Source: Bacteroidales bacterium | GTDB taxonomy: Bacteria > Bacteroidota > Bacteroidia > Bacteroidales > WCHB1-69 | Assembly (NCBI GenBank): GCA_017395245.1 | Contig: JAFPVR010000116.1 | Span: 22,086 to 86,085, forward strand | Reading direction: 5' to 3' | DNA length: 64,000 nucleotides | Part shown: one piece after another, positions 121 to 56,303 of the stretch | Numbering within the stretch: the first letter of the stretch is position 1 | How the letters are laid out: each line of letters opens with the position of its first letter | Made by a program: the position numbers and the translations under genes | The notes under the pieces: generated by a model | What the model was told of the DNA's origin: nothing | Databases searched by the model: none | What the model saw: only the letters and a program-made list of their open reading frames with translations

Positions 121-285
121 TTAGACTTTAGACGTTAGACTTAAGACTTTTAGGGTCTTAAGTTCGTTTCTACTAACTATGAATATTGTCAGTCATCTGT
201 CATTAATTCTCTATAGTCTTTAAGTCTTAAGTCTCAAGTCTTAAGTCTCAAGTCTTAGGTCTTAGGTCTCAAGTCTCAAGTCTAA
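121..285. repeat. Heptamer tandem repeats (TTAGACT block facing AAGTCTC/AAGTCTT block, inverted pair)
   Basis: ttagactttagacgttagacttaagact at 121-148 and (aagtctc/aagtctt)n at ~217-285. Confidence 0.9.
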
Positions 286-287
286 AA

Positions 288-1019
288 TTAAACCAGCGAG
301 TCAATCAGCTTGCCGTCTTCGATGCAGATGGCGCGGGAGGGGAACTTGTCAATCATGGCGAAGTTGTGGGTGGCCATGAAGACGGTGGTGCCGCTCTGGT
401 TGATGTGGTGGAAGACTTGGAAGATCTCTTCGGCGGTGATGGGGTCGAGGTTGCCGGTGGGCTCGTCGGCGAGGATAAGATCGGGATTGTTGAGCAGGGC
501 GCGGGCGATGCAGACACGCTGTTGTTCGCCGCCGGAGAGCTGCGACGGCAGTTTGAAGTCTTTGGTCTCTAATCCGACCAGCGTGAGGACCTCCTCGCAG
601 CGGTTGAGCATGGCGTTTTTGTCTTTCCACTGGGTGGCGTGCAGCACGAACATCAGGTTGTCAATGACAGTGCGGTCCTTGAGCAGCTGGTAGTCCTGGA
701 ACACGACCCCGATTTTCTTGCGGAGCTCGGGTATCTGCTTTTTCTTCATCTGGAGAAGGTCGTAGCCGATCATCATGGCCTCCTCGCCCTCGGGCTTGAT
801 TTCGCCGATGAGGGTCTTGAGGATGGAGGACTTGCCGGAGCCTGTCTTGCCGATGAGGTAGACGAATTCGCCCTGCCGGATGGAGAAGCTGATGTCGGTC
901 AGCACCCGCAGCTTCCGGTGCGAGATGTTGACGTGCTTGAAGGAGATGACGTCGGCGGGGACGGTTGTCTCTTGCACTGTTACTTCGGGTTCGGTCTTGA
1001 TGATTTCGGGTTCTTCCAT
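288..1019 (-). CDS. ftsE: Cell division ABC ATP-binding protein FtsE-like
   Basis: Walker [44 protein letters not shown] at 1019 (MEEPE). Confidence 0.85.
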
Positions 1020-1039
1020 AACTGCTTCCTTTTCGTTGT

Positions 1040-1163
1040 GGCCCCACACTGCGGTTTATGCCTTGTATGGGGTTATTTGTGCTTCGCGCGCCCCACACTG
1101 CGCTTCGCTTGTGTGGGGTTAATTGCGCTTCGCGCGTTTTGCCTCTTCGAGGCTGCTCGAGGA
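1040..1163 (-). repeat. Multi-hairpin intergenic element, family B
   Basis: Reverse complement of the element at 16037, 50432 and 52101 (GCAGCCTCGxAGAGGCAAAACGC...ACCCCACACAAGCGAAGCGCAGTGTGGGG), with the second hairpin duplicated. Confidence 0.85.
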
Positions 1164-1175
1164 TTTATGTTTATT

Positions 1176-1210
1176 TATTCAGCATTCATAATTCAGCATT
1201 CTGCATTGAA
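1176..1210 (-). repeat. AATGCTG-type heptamer repeat just after the gyrB stop
   Basis: Sense strand aatgcag aatgctg aattatg aatgctg aata. Confidence 0.8.
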
Positions 1211-53571: not shown

Positions 53572-53577
53572 AAATTC

Positions 53578-53690
53578 TTCCTTGAGCAGCCCTGTAGGGG
53601 CAAGAGCTTGGTAGCCTAGGGTGAGCGAAGTGAGCCCAAGGAATAGGGAGTAACGGATGAGAAGATAATAAGATGATAAGATAACAAGAT
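53578..53690 (+). repeat. Family B element plus GATAAGA-type repeats
   Basis: TTCCTTGAGCAGCCCTGTAGGGGCAAGAGC..AGCCTAGGGTGAGCGAAGTGAGCCCAAGG. Confidence 0.8.
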
Positions 53691-54417
53691 GAAAATTAAC
53701 ATCAAACAGCATATCCCGAACACCATCACCTGCCTGAACCTGGTGTGTGGATGCTTCTCCATCATGTCGTCGCTGAATGGCAACCTCACCTTCGCGGGCA
53801 TTTGGATCGTGACGGCCGCCATCTTCGACTTCTGCGACGGCCTCAGTGCGAGGTTGCTGCATGTAGCCTCGGCCATCGGCAAGGAACTCGACTCGCTCGC
53901 CGATGTGGTCTCCTTCGGGGTCGCCCCGACGATGATCGCCTACAAGTGGCTGACTATCTGTTATTCGCAAATGCCGCCCGCCGCGCAGATTCCCTTCACC
54001 TCGTACATGACCTACCTGGTCTTCCTCGTCCCTGCGCTGTCGGCGGTGCGCTTGGCGAAGTTCAACCTCGACACCAAGCAGACGGAGAACTTCATCGGCA
54101 TGCCGACGCCGGCCAACGCGCTGTTCCTCGGCTTCATCCCCGCCGCCGCTGAGCATATCGCCATCCTTGACAACTTCTGGGTGGTGCTCGTCTTTGCCGT
54201 TTTCTTCGCCATCCTGTTAGTCAGTCCGATCAATATGATCTCCCTGAAATTCAAGAACTTCAAGTTTACAGGCATGAACATTGCCCGCTATCTCCTGTTG
54301 CTGGTCGGCATTGTCTTGTTTCTGATTTTCAAGTTGGGCGCGTTCCCGCTGATTATCTTCGGCTATCTGCTCATCTCCATATTTTATCACACTTTAACGA
54401 ATTTGGACGTATTATGA
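53689..54417 (+). CDS. pssA: CDP-diacylglycerol--serine O-phosphatidyltransferase
   Basis: IPNTITCLNL, DFCDGLSAR, GKELDSLADVVSFGVAP, RLAKFN, FIGMPTP. Confidence 0.93.
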   Translation: MKINIKQHIPNTITCLNLVCGCFSIMSSLNGNLTFAGIWIVTAAIFDFCDGLSARLLHVASAIGKELDSLADVVSFGVAPTMIAYKWLTICYSQMPPAAQIPFTSYMTYLVFLVPALSAVRLAKFNLDTKQTENFIGMPTPANALFLGFIPAAAEHIAILDNFWVVLVFAVFFAILLVSPINMISLKFKNFKFTGMNIARYLLLLVGIVLFLIFKLGAFPLIIFGYLLISIFYHTLTNLDVL

Positions 54418-55001
54418 AATATACATCATTGGCATTGTATTGCGGTTCTTCCGCAGGAAATAATCCCGCCTACGCGCAGGAAGCGGCGCGTTTCGGCAAA
54501 CTGTGCGCTCTGAAGCAGTTGACGCTCTATTACGGGGGCGGCTCCATCGGACTGATGGGGGCGGCGGCCGAGGCTTCCCTTAATCACGGGGGGAAGGTCA
54601 TCGGGGTGGCCCCGGACTTTTTCGCCAAAGGCGAGGTGCTGGCCACCAACCTCACCGAGATGATTATGGTGAAGACCATGAGCGAGCGCAAGCAGCTGTT
54701 GGAAGAGCGGGCCGATGCGTTTGTGGTTTTCCCCGGCGGCTACGGCACCATGGACGAGCTCTTCGAGATGGTCACCGACGCGCAGTTGGGCCTTCATTTC
54801 AAACCTATCGCCATCTATAACTACATGGGATTCTACGACTTGCTGATTCAGCAGCTCGACAAGTTCATGGAAGAGGGCTTCTTGCGGCCTTTCCACCGCA
54901 ATTTGCTGATTCATGCGGAGAATCTGGATGAGTTGTTCTATAAGTTGAATACATACGAGAATACCAACGACCATACGTGGTTGGACAAAATTAAACACTA
55001 A
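54414..55001 (+). CDS. LOG-family (TIGR00730) protein
   Basis: YCGSS, YGGGSIGLMG, MSERK, PGGYGTMDELFE. Confidence 0.93.
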   Translation: MKYTSLALYCGSSAGNNPAYAQEAARFGKLCALKQLTLYYGGGSIGLMGAAAEASLNHGGKVIGVAPDFFAKGEVLATNLTEMIMVKTMSERKQLLEERADAFVVFPGGYGTMDELFEMVTDAQLGLHFKPIAIYNYMGFYDLLIQQLDKFMEEGFLRPFHRNLLIHAENLDELFYKLNTYENTNDHTWLDKIKH

Positions 55002-55013
55002 AACCCTGGAAAT

Positions 55014-56180
55014 ATGCAATTTAAAGATGTGTTGGTGGATGCTGCCTTCAAGCAGAAACTCGTGGATTTGGCTCGCGAGGGCCGTTCGGCGCATGCGCAG
55101 TTTTTCCTTGCGCAGCCCGGCAGCCATGCGTTAGCGTTGGCGGTCGCGCTCGGACAGTACCTCTGCTGCGAGAATCCCGGCGAGCACGACTCCTGCGGCG
55201 AGTGCCCGTCGTGCAAGCAGTTCGCCAAATTGTCACACCCTGACCTGCATCTCTATTTCCCCAACTGCACCACGAAATCGGTGAAGAAGGATCCCGAATC
55301 GAGTCTCTTTATCAAGGAGTTCCGGGATTATGTCCTGCAAAACGACTTCCATGTGGACATAAACGGCTGGCTGAATATTTTGGAAGGGGAGAATAAGCAG
55401 GCCTCCATCAATTCCCGCGACTGTTCCGACATTCTTCACCACAACAACACGCAGTCGCACCAGGACGGCTGCAAGGTCTATATCCTCTGGTGCGTGGACC
55501 GTCTGTATCATTCGGCCGCGCCCAAATTGCTGAAAACCCTCGAAGAGCCTGAGTCCAATTCGGTGTTCATCCTCATTTCGGAGGAGCCCGACAAGATTTT
55601 GAACACCATCCTGTCGCGCACGCAGCTCGTGAAAATCCCCCGTCTGACTGACGCGGATCTCTCCGAGAAGTTGCAACAAACGTATCCGGATCTCTCCCCC
55701 GACGAGGCGTCCGACATCGCTATATTGGCCGACGGCAACTATAACAAGGCCATGCACATTGTCACCGACAACGAGGACCAACGCGTGCTTTTGCAGCAAT
55801 TCGAGGTCGTTTTCGACAGTGTTACCGCCATGGCACAGCGAAAACCGCTGGTTTCGGTGCAATACGAGCAGGCACAGACGGCCTTGGCCGAGGTGGTCGC
55901 GGCCGGCCGCGAATACCAGAAACAGTATCTCCAGCTGATGCTGCGTATGTTGCGCAACATTCTGATGATGAATTCCAACAATTCGGGATTGCTGAAAGTG
56001 ACCCATCAGGAGCAATCCGTCTTGGACAAATACCGCGGCTTCATCCACCTGAAGCAGATTTCCGTCATGACCGACCTCTGCAACGAAGCCCTGTACCACA
56101 TCACCCGCAACGGCAACTCCTCGCTCATCTTCACCGATCTCTATTTCAAACTGGTGAACAGCCTTGAGCAGCCCCGATAG
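55014..56180 (+). CDS. holB: DNA polymerase III delta' subunit
   Basis: SCGECPSC, HPDLH, KLLKTLEEP, TILSRTQ. Confidence 0.88.
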   Translation: MQFKDVLVDAAFKQKLVDLAREGRSAHAQFFLAQPGSHALALAVALGQYLCCENPGEHDSCGECPSCKQFAKLSHPDLHLYFPNCTTKSVKKDPESSLFIKEFRDYVLQNDFHVDINGWLNILEGENKQASINSRDCSDILHHNNTQSHQDGCKVYILWCVDRLYHSAAPKLLKTLEEPESNSVFILISEEPDKILNTILSRTQLVKIPRLTDADLSEKLQQTYPDLSPDEASDIAILADGNYNKAMHIVTDNEDQRVLLQQFEVVFDSVTAMAQRKPLVSVQYEQAQTALAEVVAAGREYQKQYLQLMLRMLRNILMMNSNNSGLLKVTHQEQSVLDKYRGFIHLKQISVMTDLCNEALYHITRNGNSSLIFTDLYFKLVNSLEQPR

Positions 56181-56303
56181 GGGCAAGAGCTTGTTTAAAT
56201 TGGCCAACTGCTTTGAACAGCCCCGATAGGGGCAAGAGCTCGGTAGCCCGGGGTAAGGCCGTAGGCCGCAGCCCCGGGGAAAACGGTCAACGGTCAACGG
56301 TCA
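56162..56303 (+). repeat. Family B element (first hairpin duplicated, overlapping the holB stop) plus AACGGTC x3
   Basis: CAGCCCCGATAGGGGCAAGAGC twice; AGCCCGGGGTAAGGCCGTAGGCCGCAGCCCCGGG. Confidence 0.82.

Follow-up and report, generated by a model that had tools for sequence, protein, structure and literature searches.

Tandem arrays of heptanucleotides at gene junctions have been reported from several groups of bacteria. According to excerpts of Rehm et al. (2015; PMC4692102), the heptamers GGGAATC in Xanthomonas and GGGGAYT in Nostoc are over-represented, about 90% intergenic, and located near or over the upstream stop codon and farther from the next open reading frame (ORF). G-richness is seen on the coding strand past stops and on the non-coding strand ahead of starts, four units are preferred, 70-75 inverted pairs occur per genome, and the junctions are kept between related species while length and sequence vary; polymerase slippage was proposed as the origin and the function was given as unknown (excerpts of PMC4692102). 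Excerpts of MacGregor (2015; PMC4679880) describe forward TAACTGA repeats a few nucleotides (nt) before start codons in marine Beggiatoaceae, some Cyanobacteria and five Bacteroidetes, the genomes of which have few canonical ribosome-binding sites, and suggest a role in translation. In the survey of Mrazek, Guo and Shah (2007), as summarized in excerpts of PMC4679880 and PMC4692102, heptanucleotides were the commonest repeats in genomes rich in repeats of 5-11 nt, intergenic and scattered across the phylogeny, and slippage tied to the polymerase footprint was proposed; those summaries hold no grammar of position or strand. Four-unit heptamer elements are also recorded in excerpts on Geobacter metallireducens (PMC2700814). 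The present study deals with the period-7 arrays at the gene junctions of a 64,000-nt stretch of a Bacteroidales bacterium genome (contig JAFPVR010000116.1, positions 22,086-86,085, of GenBank assembly GCA_017395245.1), which is called the window here.

Another kind of repeated filler is known from the junctions of enterobacterial operons, i.e., the repetitive extragenic palindromic (REP) sequences and bacterial interspersed mosaic elements (BIME), which are 3' or intercistronic, form hairpins and are pressed on stop codons; the REP unit is a palindrome mobilized by the REP-associated tyrosine transposase (RAYT). The arrays studied here likewise fill junctions at stops, and REP-like hairpins lie beside many of them. 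However, heptamer arrays are direct repeats and are mostly unstructured or weakly structured.

The arrays belong to a repeat class that has already been described, without explanation, in other bacteria, and the comparison with cyanobacterial short tandemly repeated repetitive sequences made in a preliminary description of the window was apt. As in Xanthomonas and Nostoc, so far as the excerpts of PMC4692102 go, they are intergenic and near stops, follow the same strand rule, prefer about four units, form facing pairs and occupy junctions that are kept between species. They differ from those repeats in that their units are AT-rich without G-runs, belong to 158 families instead of one, include a distinct start-side class and occur in a rumen Bacteroidales host, and also in that they concentrate in junctions without a promoter box and beside dispersed hairpin modules (compared with excerpts of PMC4692102). 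The 40 largest families were AT-rich and the leading ones had no GGG run, so G-quadruplexes are excluded for these arrays. The TAACCMA class resembles the TAACTGA repeats (excerpts of PMC4679880) in lying forward a few nt before starts and in carrying stop triplets in each unit, with TAAC at positions 1-4 and the final A in common; unlike those repeats, most of the present arrays are stop-side and many unit families coexist. No run of two or more tandem copies of TAACTGA was found on either strand of the assembly, in which 127 single copies occur. In the literature searched, we found nothing on arrays of this kind in rumen Bacteroidales, nor any description of a grammar of many families that separates stop side from start side, or of a preference for promoter-less junctions.

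Sequences and analyses

The window corresponds to G000:C105:22086-86085, where G000 is the assembly (3.78 Mb, 129 contigs, 51.9% GC), to which the genome-wide counts refer; other G-numbers are congeners in the same GTDB genus, of which G018 (median protein identity 83%) and G021 (about 90% identity) were used as comparison species. Period-7 arrays were called with Tandem Repeats Finder. Null expectations for position were obtained by random placement of the arrays inside the same co-directional junctions, and arrays were assigned to a stop-side set (n = 319), a start-side set (n = 147) and a mid-junction set (n = 174). The reversed-pattern control was valid for the GACTTRA family (438 forward vs. 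0 reversed matches) and void for TAACCAA, the reversed unit of which is a rotation of the same array. The box TAnnTTTG, which we take to be the Bacteroidetes promoter consensus, was validated by its position in G000, with 412 sense matches 20-39 nt upstream of starts vs. about 55 antisense matches.

Abundance, position and composition of the arrays

The preliminary description, which was made from the letters of the window alone, had noted about 20 heptamer arrays there and had proposed a genome-wide tandem-repeat scan. That scan gave a clear excess of period 7, with 821 arrays vs. 179 of period 6, 112 of period 8 and 8 of period 5; the intergenic arrays numbered 634, 27, 46 and 4, respectively, and exact runs of at least three copies numbered 220 for 7-mers, 7 for 6-mers and 2 for 8-mers. 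Both orientation and position were non-random, so that none of the outcomes named in the preliminary description as refuting the pattern was observed. Under the first gene calls, non-coding sequence amounted to 423 kb, of which period-7 array DNA took up about 25 kb. Since arrays were present on all 55 contigs of at least 20 kb, at densities of 71-612 per Mb, the pattern is not due to contamination. Copy number had its mode at 4-5 and a long upper tail within a range of 2 to 30, and super-periods of 14 and 21 nt were seen within arrays. The period-7 junction pattern is real, strong, lineage-specific and far beyond chance.

The arrays were most closely tied to stop codons. Among 520 co-directional arrays, 248 lay within 10 nt of the upstream stop (null 100.7±6.9) and 133 equally close to the next start (null 101.4±7.0), with 35 abutting both; the distance from array to stop peaked at -5 to +4 nt, and in stop-side families the following start was a median of about 105-130 nt away. 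In GACTTRA, the largest family, 39 of 60 stop-abutting arrays had GACT (27) or ACTT (12) right after the stop, i.e., the array begins at the stop and in phase. The major orientation of the family was held by 408 of the 520 arrays (null 341±6.7). Stop-side families abutted stops far more often than starts (ACTTGAG 29/3, AAGACTT 29/0, AATGATG 17/2, AATGCTG 12/0 and AGCAGTT 11/0), and families of the TAACCMA class abutted starts more often than stops (AACCAAT 26/10, AACCCAT 6/3 and AACCTAT 5/1; 37/14 in total), at a median distance of 7-8 nt from the start. The reverse complement of the start-side unit, which reads ATTGGTT on the sense strand, abutted stops in 11 of 11 cases. Convergent junctions carried arrays at the same rate per junction.

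The composition of the sense strand was opposite at the two ends. Stop-side arrays had a mean C content of 0.117 and a mean G content of 0.23 (G>C in 250, C>G in 61), and a stop triplet was present in the sense unit of 267 of the 319 vs. 153 for the antisense unit; mid-junction arrays were without this stop bias (94 sense vs. 108 antisense, of 174). Start-side arrays had A at 0.432 and G at 0.095, with C>G in 105 vs. G>C in 37 and A>T in 116 vs. T>A in 24, and thus exaggerated the leader composition of array-free starts (A 0.355, G 0.167). The flanks of array-free junctions showed a weak bias on the start side and none on the stop side. The rule was repeated with other units in G021 (stop-side G>C 26 vs. 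2; start-side C>G 12 vs. 2) and in G018 (52 vs. 7 and 26 vs. 7, respectively), as was the link between motif and position. Predicted folding was weaker in start-side arrays (-0.034 kcal/nt; 76% above -1 kcal), which have practically no RNA structure, than in stop-side arrays (-0.105 kcal/nt), and a folding energy of 0 kcal was obtained for eight-copy runs of TAACCAA, TTGAAAC or AATCACT. Because arrays beside plus- and minus-strand genes of the window follow one sense-strand rule, polarity follows transcription and not replication.

Of 189 junctions with a stop-side array, 26 had the promoter box between the array and the following start, and 14 of 147 start-side arrays had it upstream; among array-free co-directional junctions 60-250 nt long, the box was present in 304 of 685. 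With the box so rare at array junctions, the arrays appear to be mainly intercistronic, and from the sequence the box-less junctions are read as lying inside operons. Based on the opposite composition at stops and starts, the same rule in two other species and the avoidance of promoter boxes, a constraint at the level of the mRNA is the best reading of these patterns. To this extent the preliminary description, which had suggested an mRNA-level code as one possibility, was partly supported, while a positively selected element ranks as a rival, as discussed below. The consistent polarity reported there is non-random as well and follows transcription. The preliminary description had taken it, together with the fixed period, to point to a dedicated generator or to such a code, and no generator was found.

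Facing array pairs not more than 200 nt apart numbered 45 (null 14.7±3.3), came mainly from the GACTTRA and CTGAAAC families and had the first arm at the stop. Two layouts recurred among 28 array-bearing junctions that were sampled: stop, array, loop, inverted array and start; or stop, array, dispersed multi-hairpin module, array and ATG. In about 40% of the arrays of the main families the distal flank was part of a dispersed repeat, and the gene-side flank was almost always unique. Hairpin module A or B came next after 23 of the 64 AATGNTG stop-side arrays, and these modules occurred in 150 of 1274 array-free junctions. A hairpin with a T-run followed 15 of the 319 stop-side arrays, as judged by a crude pattern, and the arrays themselves were without T-runs.

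Arrays of the window

In the window 22 period-7 arrays were found, 19 of them at gene junctions. They are listed below together with a degenerate run and the module that lies between two of them.

120-150, minus strand: 4.4 copies, sense unit GTCTAAA; runs to the start codon of the ORF with its end at 119; inverted arm to 215-283
215-283, minus strand: 9.7 copies, sense TRAGACT; starts 4 nt past the stop of a gene for an FtsE-like ABC ATPase (288-1049, minus strand); first arm of a repeat-armed hairpin
1177-1207, minus strand: 4.4 copies, sense AATGCWG; starts 3 nt past the gyrB stop; a dispersed module with several hairpins comes next
5025-5053, plus strand: 4.1 copies, unit GGTTATR (reverse complement of TAACCMA); starts 2 nt past the stop of ORF 4585-5022
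9439-9492, plus strand: 7.7 copies, unit TGAATGN; the nqrA ORF runs into it and stops inside at 9466
9493-9588, plus strand: dispersed multi-hairpin module between the two nqrA-side arrays
9589-9615, plus strand: 3.9 copies, unit AACGATA; reaches the ATG (9611) of a 612-aa ORF inserted between nqrA and nqrB
12545-12631, plus strand: 12.4 copies, unit TGAGACT grading to TGAAACY; gives the last codons and the stop (12561) of nqrB and ends 8 nt before the nqrC ATG
13220-13252, plus strand: 4.7 copies, unit CAATTCA; codes the last nqrC residues (stop 13254); nqrD start at 13259
16120-16138, plus strand: 2.7 copies, unit GAAACAA; between a REP-like hairpin and the nqrF ATG (16147)
20215-20249, minus strand: 5.0 copies, sense ATAACCA; ends 8 nt before the gpmA ATG (20206)
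20253-20276, minus strand: 3.4 copies, sense CTAAACT; starts 16 nt past the panD stop
20699-20726, minus strand: 4.0 copies, sense AAAGTCT; inverted arm to 20739-20808 with a 12-nt loop
20739-20808, minus strand: 10 copies, sense AGACTTG; 2-nt overlap with the panC stop
24074-24131, minus strand: 8.3 copies, sense ATAACCM; over the tcdA stop, ends 6 nt before the ATG of a YqeY-like gene
28195-28213: weak array of 2.9 copies, not at a gene junction
32917-32947: array inside the coding sequence of a type IX secretion system (T9SS) sorting domain, not at a junction
33120-33150, plus strand: 4.4 copies, unit AATGMTG; over the stop of the T9SS-tailed ORF 31685-33124, followed by a hairpin and T run
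33353-33377: array of period 7 or 13, not counted at a junction
40539-40590, plus strand: 7.4 copies, unit AATGYTG; 76 nt past the stop of a 2319-aa collagen-like ORF, behind a terminator-like hairpin, at a convergent junction
42710-42748, plus strand: degenerate TAACCMA-like run of about 4 units, under the threshold of Tandem Repeats Finder; ends about 6 nt before the clpB ATG (42755)
50573-50610, plus strand: 5.4 copies, unit TAACCMA; between a REP-like hairpin and the ATG at 50614, 3 nt off
52031-52068, plus strand: 5.4 copies, unit AGTTAGY; over the kdsB stop (52050)
56282-56303, plus strand: 3.1 exact copies, unit AACGGTC; right after a GC-rich hairpin, 101 nt past the stop of holB, with the next start 49 nt further on

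The placements given in the preliminary description were borne out by these arrays. AATGCTG-type arrays follow or cover sense-strand stops at gyrB, nqrA and ORF 31685-33124, with the array at 40539 lying 76 nt past its stop, and AATA closes each of the four. TTGAGAC-type arrays lie against or over the stops of the FtsE-like gene, nqrB and panC. TAACCMA arrays fall short of the ATG by 8 nt at gpmA, 6 nt at the YqeY-like gene and 3 nt at the kinase-like gene (50614), and the degenerate copies ahead of clpB and nqrE were found as well. The copy at 5025, which had been singled out for its opposite orientation, does lie 2 nt past the stop of ORF 4585-5022, and its sense class, TGGTTAT, abuts stops in 11 of 11 cases genome-wide. 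The arrays shift gene ends, the C-terminal residues of NqrA, NqrB and NqrC being encoded by repeats. They also break short-read assemblies. No contig spanning the array at 12545-12631 was found among three DNA runs.

Junctions in related species

The trait is patchy within the GTDB genus. Period-7 arrays per Mb sampled numbered 217 in G000, 245-268 in G018, 205 in G021, 100 in G007, 80 in G006, 60 in G020, 35 in G004 and 0 in G012; three other families had 12-65 per Mb sampled, none of which reached three copies. Matches to the TAACCAA array pattern numbered 127 in G000 and 51-155 in five congeners; ten congeners had no match, and 16 other families had hardly any. GACTTRA matched 438 times in G000, 13-146 times in nine congeners and at most once in the remaining ones (G017 1, G003 0). 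The nearest named records were ruminal metagenome-assembled genomes labeled 'Bacteroidales bacterium', with gyrB 86-87% identical and no array after gyrB.

As the preliminary description had proposed, orthologous junctions were compared among relatives; occupancy was kept between species while the units turned over. Between G000 and G018, 158 conserved junctions had arrays in both species in 26 cases, in G018 only in 20, in G000 only in 12 and in neither in 100 (odds ratio (OR) 10.8, p = 5e-9); between G000 and G021, 140 conserved junctions were split into 24 with arrays in both, 13 and 19 with arrays in one species only and 84 with arrays in neither (OR 8.2). Units were related in 9 of 23 shared junctions, vs. 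7.7% of random pairs. The gpmA array (20215-20249) is missing in the sister species G021, which has 15 nt only at that place, and the place of the array at 24074-24131 is occupied in G021 by a hairpin module.

Differences in length were found as well. One array with conserved flanks had 2 units in G021 and 5 in G000. Contigs from two other samples differed from the window by 14 nt each across the stretch with the nqrA array (9439-9492), and a contig from another sample differed by 28 nt across the stretch with the nqrC array (13220-13252). These differences, together with the 14- and 21-nt super-periods, run counter to the preliminary description where it set the arrays apart from random slippage.

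Array-bearing junctions of G000 had a median length of 128 nt, vs. 39 nt in array-poor congeners (45 of 136 junctions compared), and in 16 of the 45 the congener length was at most 20 nt; array-free junctions in the same comparison had 19 nt in the congener and 12 nt in G000. At nqrB-nqrC, for example, the array-poor G005, G016, G019 and G006 have an ATGA stop/start overlap, G000, G021, G018, G008, G010, G009 and G002 have arrays with differing units, and G017 has REP hairpins. The arrays are thus inserted in operon junctions that overlap or are tight in relatives, and the genus, with array-rich and array-free species side by side, is a natural experiment.

Origin and possible function

On balance, these observations favor, by a modest measure, heptanucleotide repeats that are made by slippage and filtered by constraints on the mRNA together with a deletion bias. 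The arrays would be simple-sequence repeats that expanded in one subclade of a rumen Bacteroidales genus, were born and resized by replication slippage in 7-nt steps, and accumulated in transcribed DNA just outside ORFs, chiefly in junctions without a promoter box, so that junctions tight in relatives became about threefold wider. The grammar would then come not from a generator but from the survivors of mRNA selection and of the bacterial bias towards small deletions. At the end of an ORF an array may be tolerated only if its sense strand stops every frame, and stop-side arrays would therefore carry stops and be poor in C. That arrays so frequently open with the stop triplet could be due to deletions that joined the original stop of the gene to a matching TRA triplet in the repeat. 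Ahead of starts that do not rely on Shine-Dalgarno pairing, only G-poor, A-rich and unstructured arrays would be tolerated. Under these two constraints the same double-stranded repeat would read TAACCAA before starts and TGGTTAT after stops. Some families are found as facing arms, which would form long hairpins from the stop onward. Slippage is the most likely generator; the comparison of sequences points to it indirectly, as do the super-periods and the mode of 4-5 copies with its long tail. The arrays are probably at most passive spacers that keep hairpin modules off terminating or initiating ribosomes.

Several points weigh against this slippage reading. The vocabulary is restricted, with 158 unit families for 810 arrays and 156 arrays in the top three, and single copies of GACTTRA at array-free junctions amount to only 1-4 matches; local birth therefore poorly explains the presence of one unit at at least 60 stops. 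Local seeding from a motif present after stops was rejected on the same ground, since it fails for the largest family. A network of units one mutation apart placed 154 of the 158 families in one component, in a sequence space too small for this to be informative. The sharp differences in families between species look more like amplification from a shared library than like a fixed propensity for slippage, and the keeping of occupancy while units change would also fit positive selection for an array at that place. The 14-, 14- and 28-nt differences are total gap counts over the contigs, not placed on the arrays base by base, and the stop-bearing and C-poor traits are confounded, as stop codons have no C. 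The gene calls came from our own crude hexamer model, with names from NCBIfam, and contigs of the metatranscriptome X16 cover gene bodies, with none spanning an array.

A role as positively selected cis-acting RNA elements, i.e., intercistronic punctuation, was considered unlikely. The start pads would be landing sites for ribosomes or binding sites for ribosomal protein S1 or cold-shock-domain proteins, and the stop pads and hairpins would control termination, reinitiation, stability or the access of Rho. One composition rule holds in three species despite different units and matches the strand rule in the excerpts of Rehm et al. (PMC4692102), and S1, Csp or CsrA binding was proposed for TAACTGA before starts in those of MacGregor (PMC4679880). 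Such a role would also suit the persistence of occupancy under turnover of sequence, the location of arrays in box-less junctions and between hairpin modules and ORF ends, the exaggerated leader composition of start-side arrays, and the excess of facing pairs with the first arm at the stop. However, the same junction in a sister species may hold another unit, a hairpin module or nothing, no array is present in either species at 100 of 158 and 84 of 140 conserved junctions, and array-poor congeners get by in these operons with gene overlaps or gaps of 2-40 nt. Moreover, second arms are often mismatched in every unit (AAAGTCT opposite GACTTRA) with no compensatory pattern seen, and copy number spans 2 to 30. 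A wider form of this idea, in which the arrays would be a punctuation of mRNA common to several phyla and read in a 7-nt register by an oligonucleotide-binding (OB)-fold protein (S1 or cold-shock-domain), organizing termination, exclusion of Rho and de novo initiation without Shine-Dalgarno, is a long shot; if it were true, the sharp period of 7 would be the footprint of a protein or the product of a dedicated generator, and not of polymerase slippage alone.

A dedicated generator, which the preliminary description had also put forward, or a means of dispersal that places arrays at gene ends is improbable. It could be a mobile element with heptamer ends, a recombinase or HUH nuclease tied to the REP and hairpin modules, or an enzyme that copies a template, with slippage only resizing its products. 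The sharpness of the period, a restricted vocabulary common to unrelated junctions, the near-absence of single GACTTRA copies together with the exact start at the stop in about two thirds of its arrays, the amplification of families species by species in one subclade, the module A or B after 23 of 64 AATGNTG arrays, and the REP elements on stop codons (see below) speak in its favor. No sign of it was found in transposon context, breakpoints, unit decay, or polA and mutS. Transposon footprints or target-site duplications were rejected because, of 120 related array pairs 300-6000 nt apart, those enclosing one or two ORFs showed no obvious transposon-like pattern, the enclosed ORFs having been left unannotated, and many consecutive ORFs each have their own array; loops between facing arms are not conserved either. 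Arrays occurred at 29 of 98 breakpoint or indel junctions vs. 46 of 158 conserved junctions (OR 1.02, p = 1.0), which speaks against cassette joints, and there was no strong one-ended gradient of unit decay as one-ended growth would leave, in a test made weak by gapless splitting of units. A defect of repair or polymerase was rejected for the two genes tested, polA and mutS, which are full-length in all 15 sampled members of the genus, array-rich and array-poor alike. Hitch-hiking on hairpin modules would explain at most about a third of AATGNTG arrays and few others, more than half of the arrays being without an adjoining dispersed module. We know of no enzyme that makes such arrays. Action at the level of DNA, as hypermutable tuning knobs or phase variation, as binding arrays for nucleoid proteins or as recombination joints of cassettes, is very improbable. 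Copy number does vary between strains and species, three units make 21 bp or about two helical turns and 21-nt super-periods occur, and nqr gene order varies among congeners at array-bearing junctions. However, double-stranded sites need neither a polarity that tracks the transcribed strand nor an opposite composition at stops and starts, junctions with a promoter box are avoided, housekeeping genes (gyrB, nqr, panC, gpmA and kdsB) are flanked, and breakpoints are not enriched. Phase-variable contingency repeats in particular were rejected, since the arrays abut stops, lie in box-less junctions and flank housekeeping genes, and only 7 of 81 in-ORF arrays are within 60 nt of the 5' end.

Slippage under mRNA constraints thus remains the preferred reading. 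Dozens of unit families obey one sense-strand rule, which can also be read from the published Xanthomonas and Nostoc data as excerpted from PMC4692102. The search for a function is pointed to the mRNA, i.e., to termination, reinitiation and initiation without Shine-Dalgarno pairing, and the search for a cause to whatever differs between sister species.

Hairpin elements and other features

REP-like elements of the form GTAGAGAC are likewise pressed against stop codons in G000. At array-free junctions, REP-like palindromes of the form GTAGAGACG...CGTCTCTAC lie on stop codons, and their TAG is often the stop itself; TAGAGA had 71 matches within 10 nt of stops vs. about 28 expected. The last 53 nt of the module at 9493-9588 (9536-9588, minus strand) matched the Rfam family Acido-Lenti-1 (RF01687) with 38.9 bits vs. 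a cut-off of 37. This was the only Rfam match in the window at gathering score, and, falling on one hairpin of a dispersed module, it is probably a look-alike. Other junction filler consists of tandem arrays at 7940-8105, 45361-45626 and 57798-57904, with units of 32, 34 and 29/52 nt in 5.2, 7.8 and 2-3.6 copies, respectively, each unit containing a GC-rich hairpin.

The operon for the Na+-translocating NADH:quinone reductase (Na+-NQR) is interrupted in the window by the 612-aa ORF between nqrA and nqrB (9611-11449), which is of no known family, and by a 115-aa ORF and an MqsA-like helix-turn-helix ORF between nqrD and nqrE (14006-15359); such insertions vary among congeners. Two full-length mutS1 genes are present in the assembly (G000 C120:4545-7115 and C60:7176-9746; 910 and 896 bits), possibly through duplication or because the bin includes a second strain (its contamination is estimated at 3.25%).

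Repeats also occur within coding sequences. In large ORFs, CAATGTA arrays of 4-5 copies were found 165-214 nt ahead of the stop, namely in one ORF of the window (32917-32947) and in at least 12 other ORFs of G000 (e.g., C116:8930-8962 and C99:76273-76305), and the copy in the window is translated within the T9SS C-terminal sorting domain. The 2319-aa ORF at 33503-40462 contains long collagen-like GXY repeats, with nine-base periods at 33950-35111, and FISUMP domains. An 18-nt repeat of 18.8 copies (52605-52943) in ORF 52192-53571 codes a proline- and glutamate-rich region. Period 22 forms a minor second peak genome-wide, with 37 arrays of which 25 are intergenic, and tandem repeats of 11 and 22 nt are present in the window at 57947-58063.

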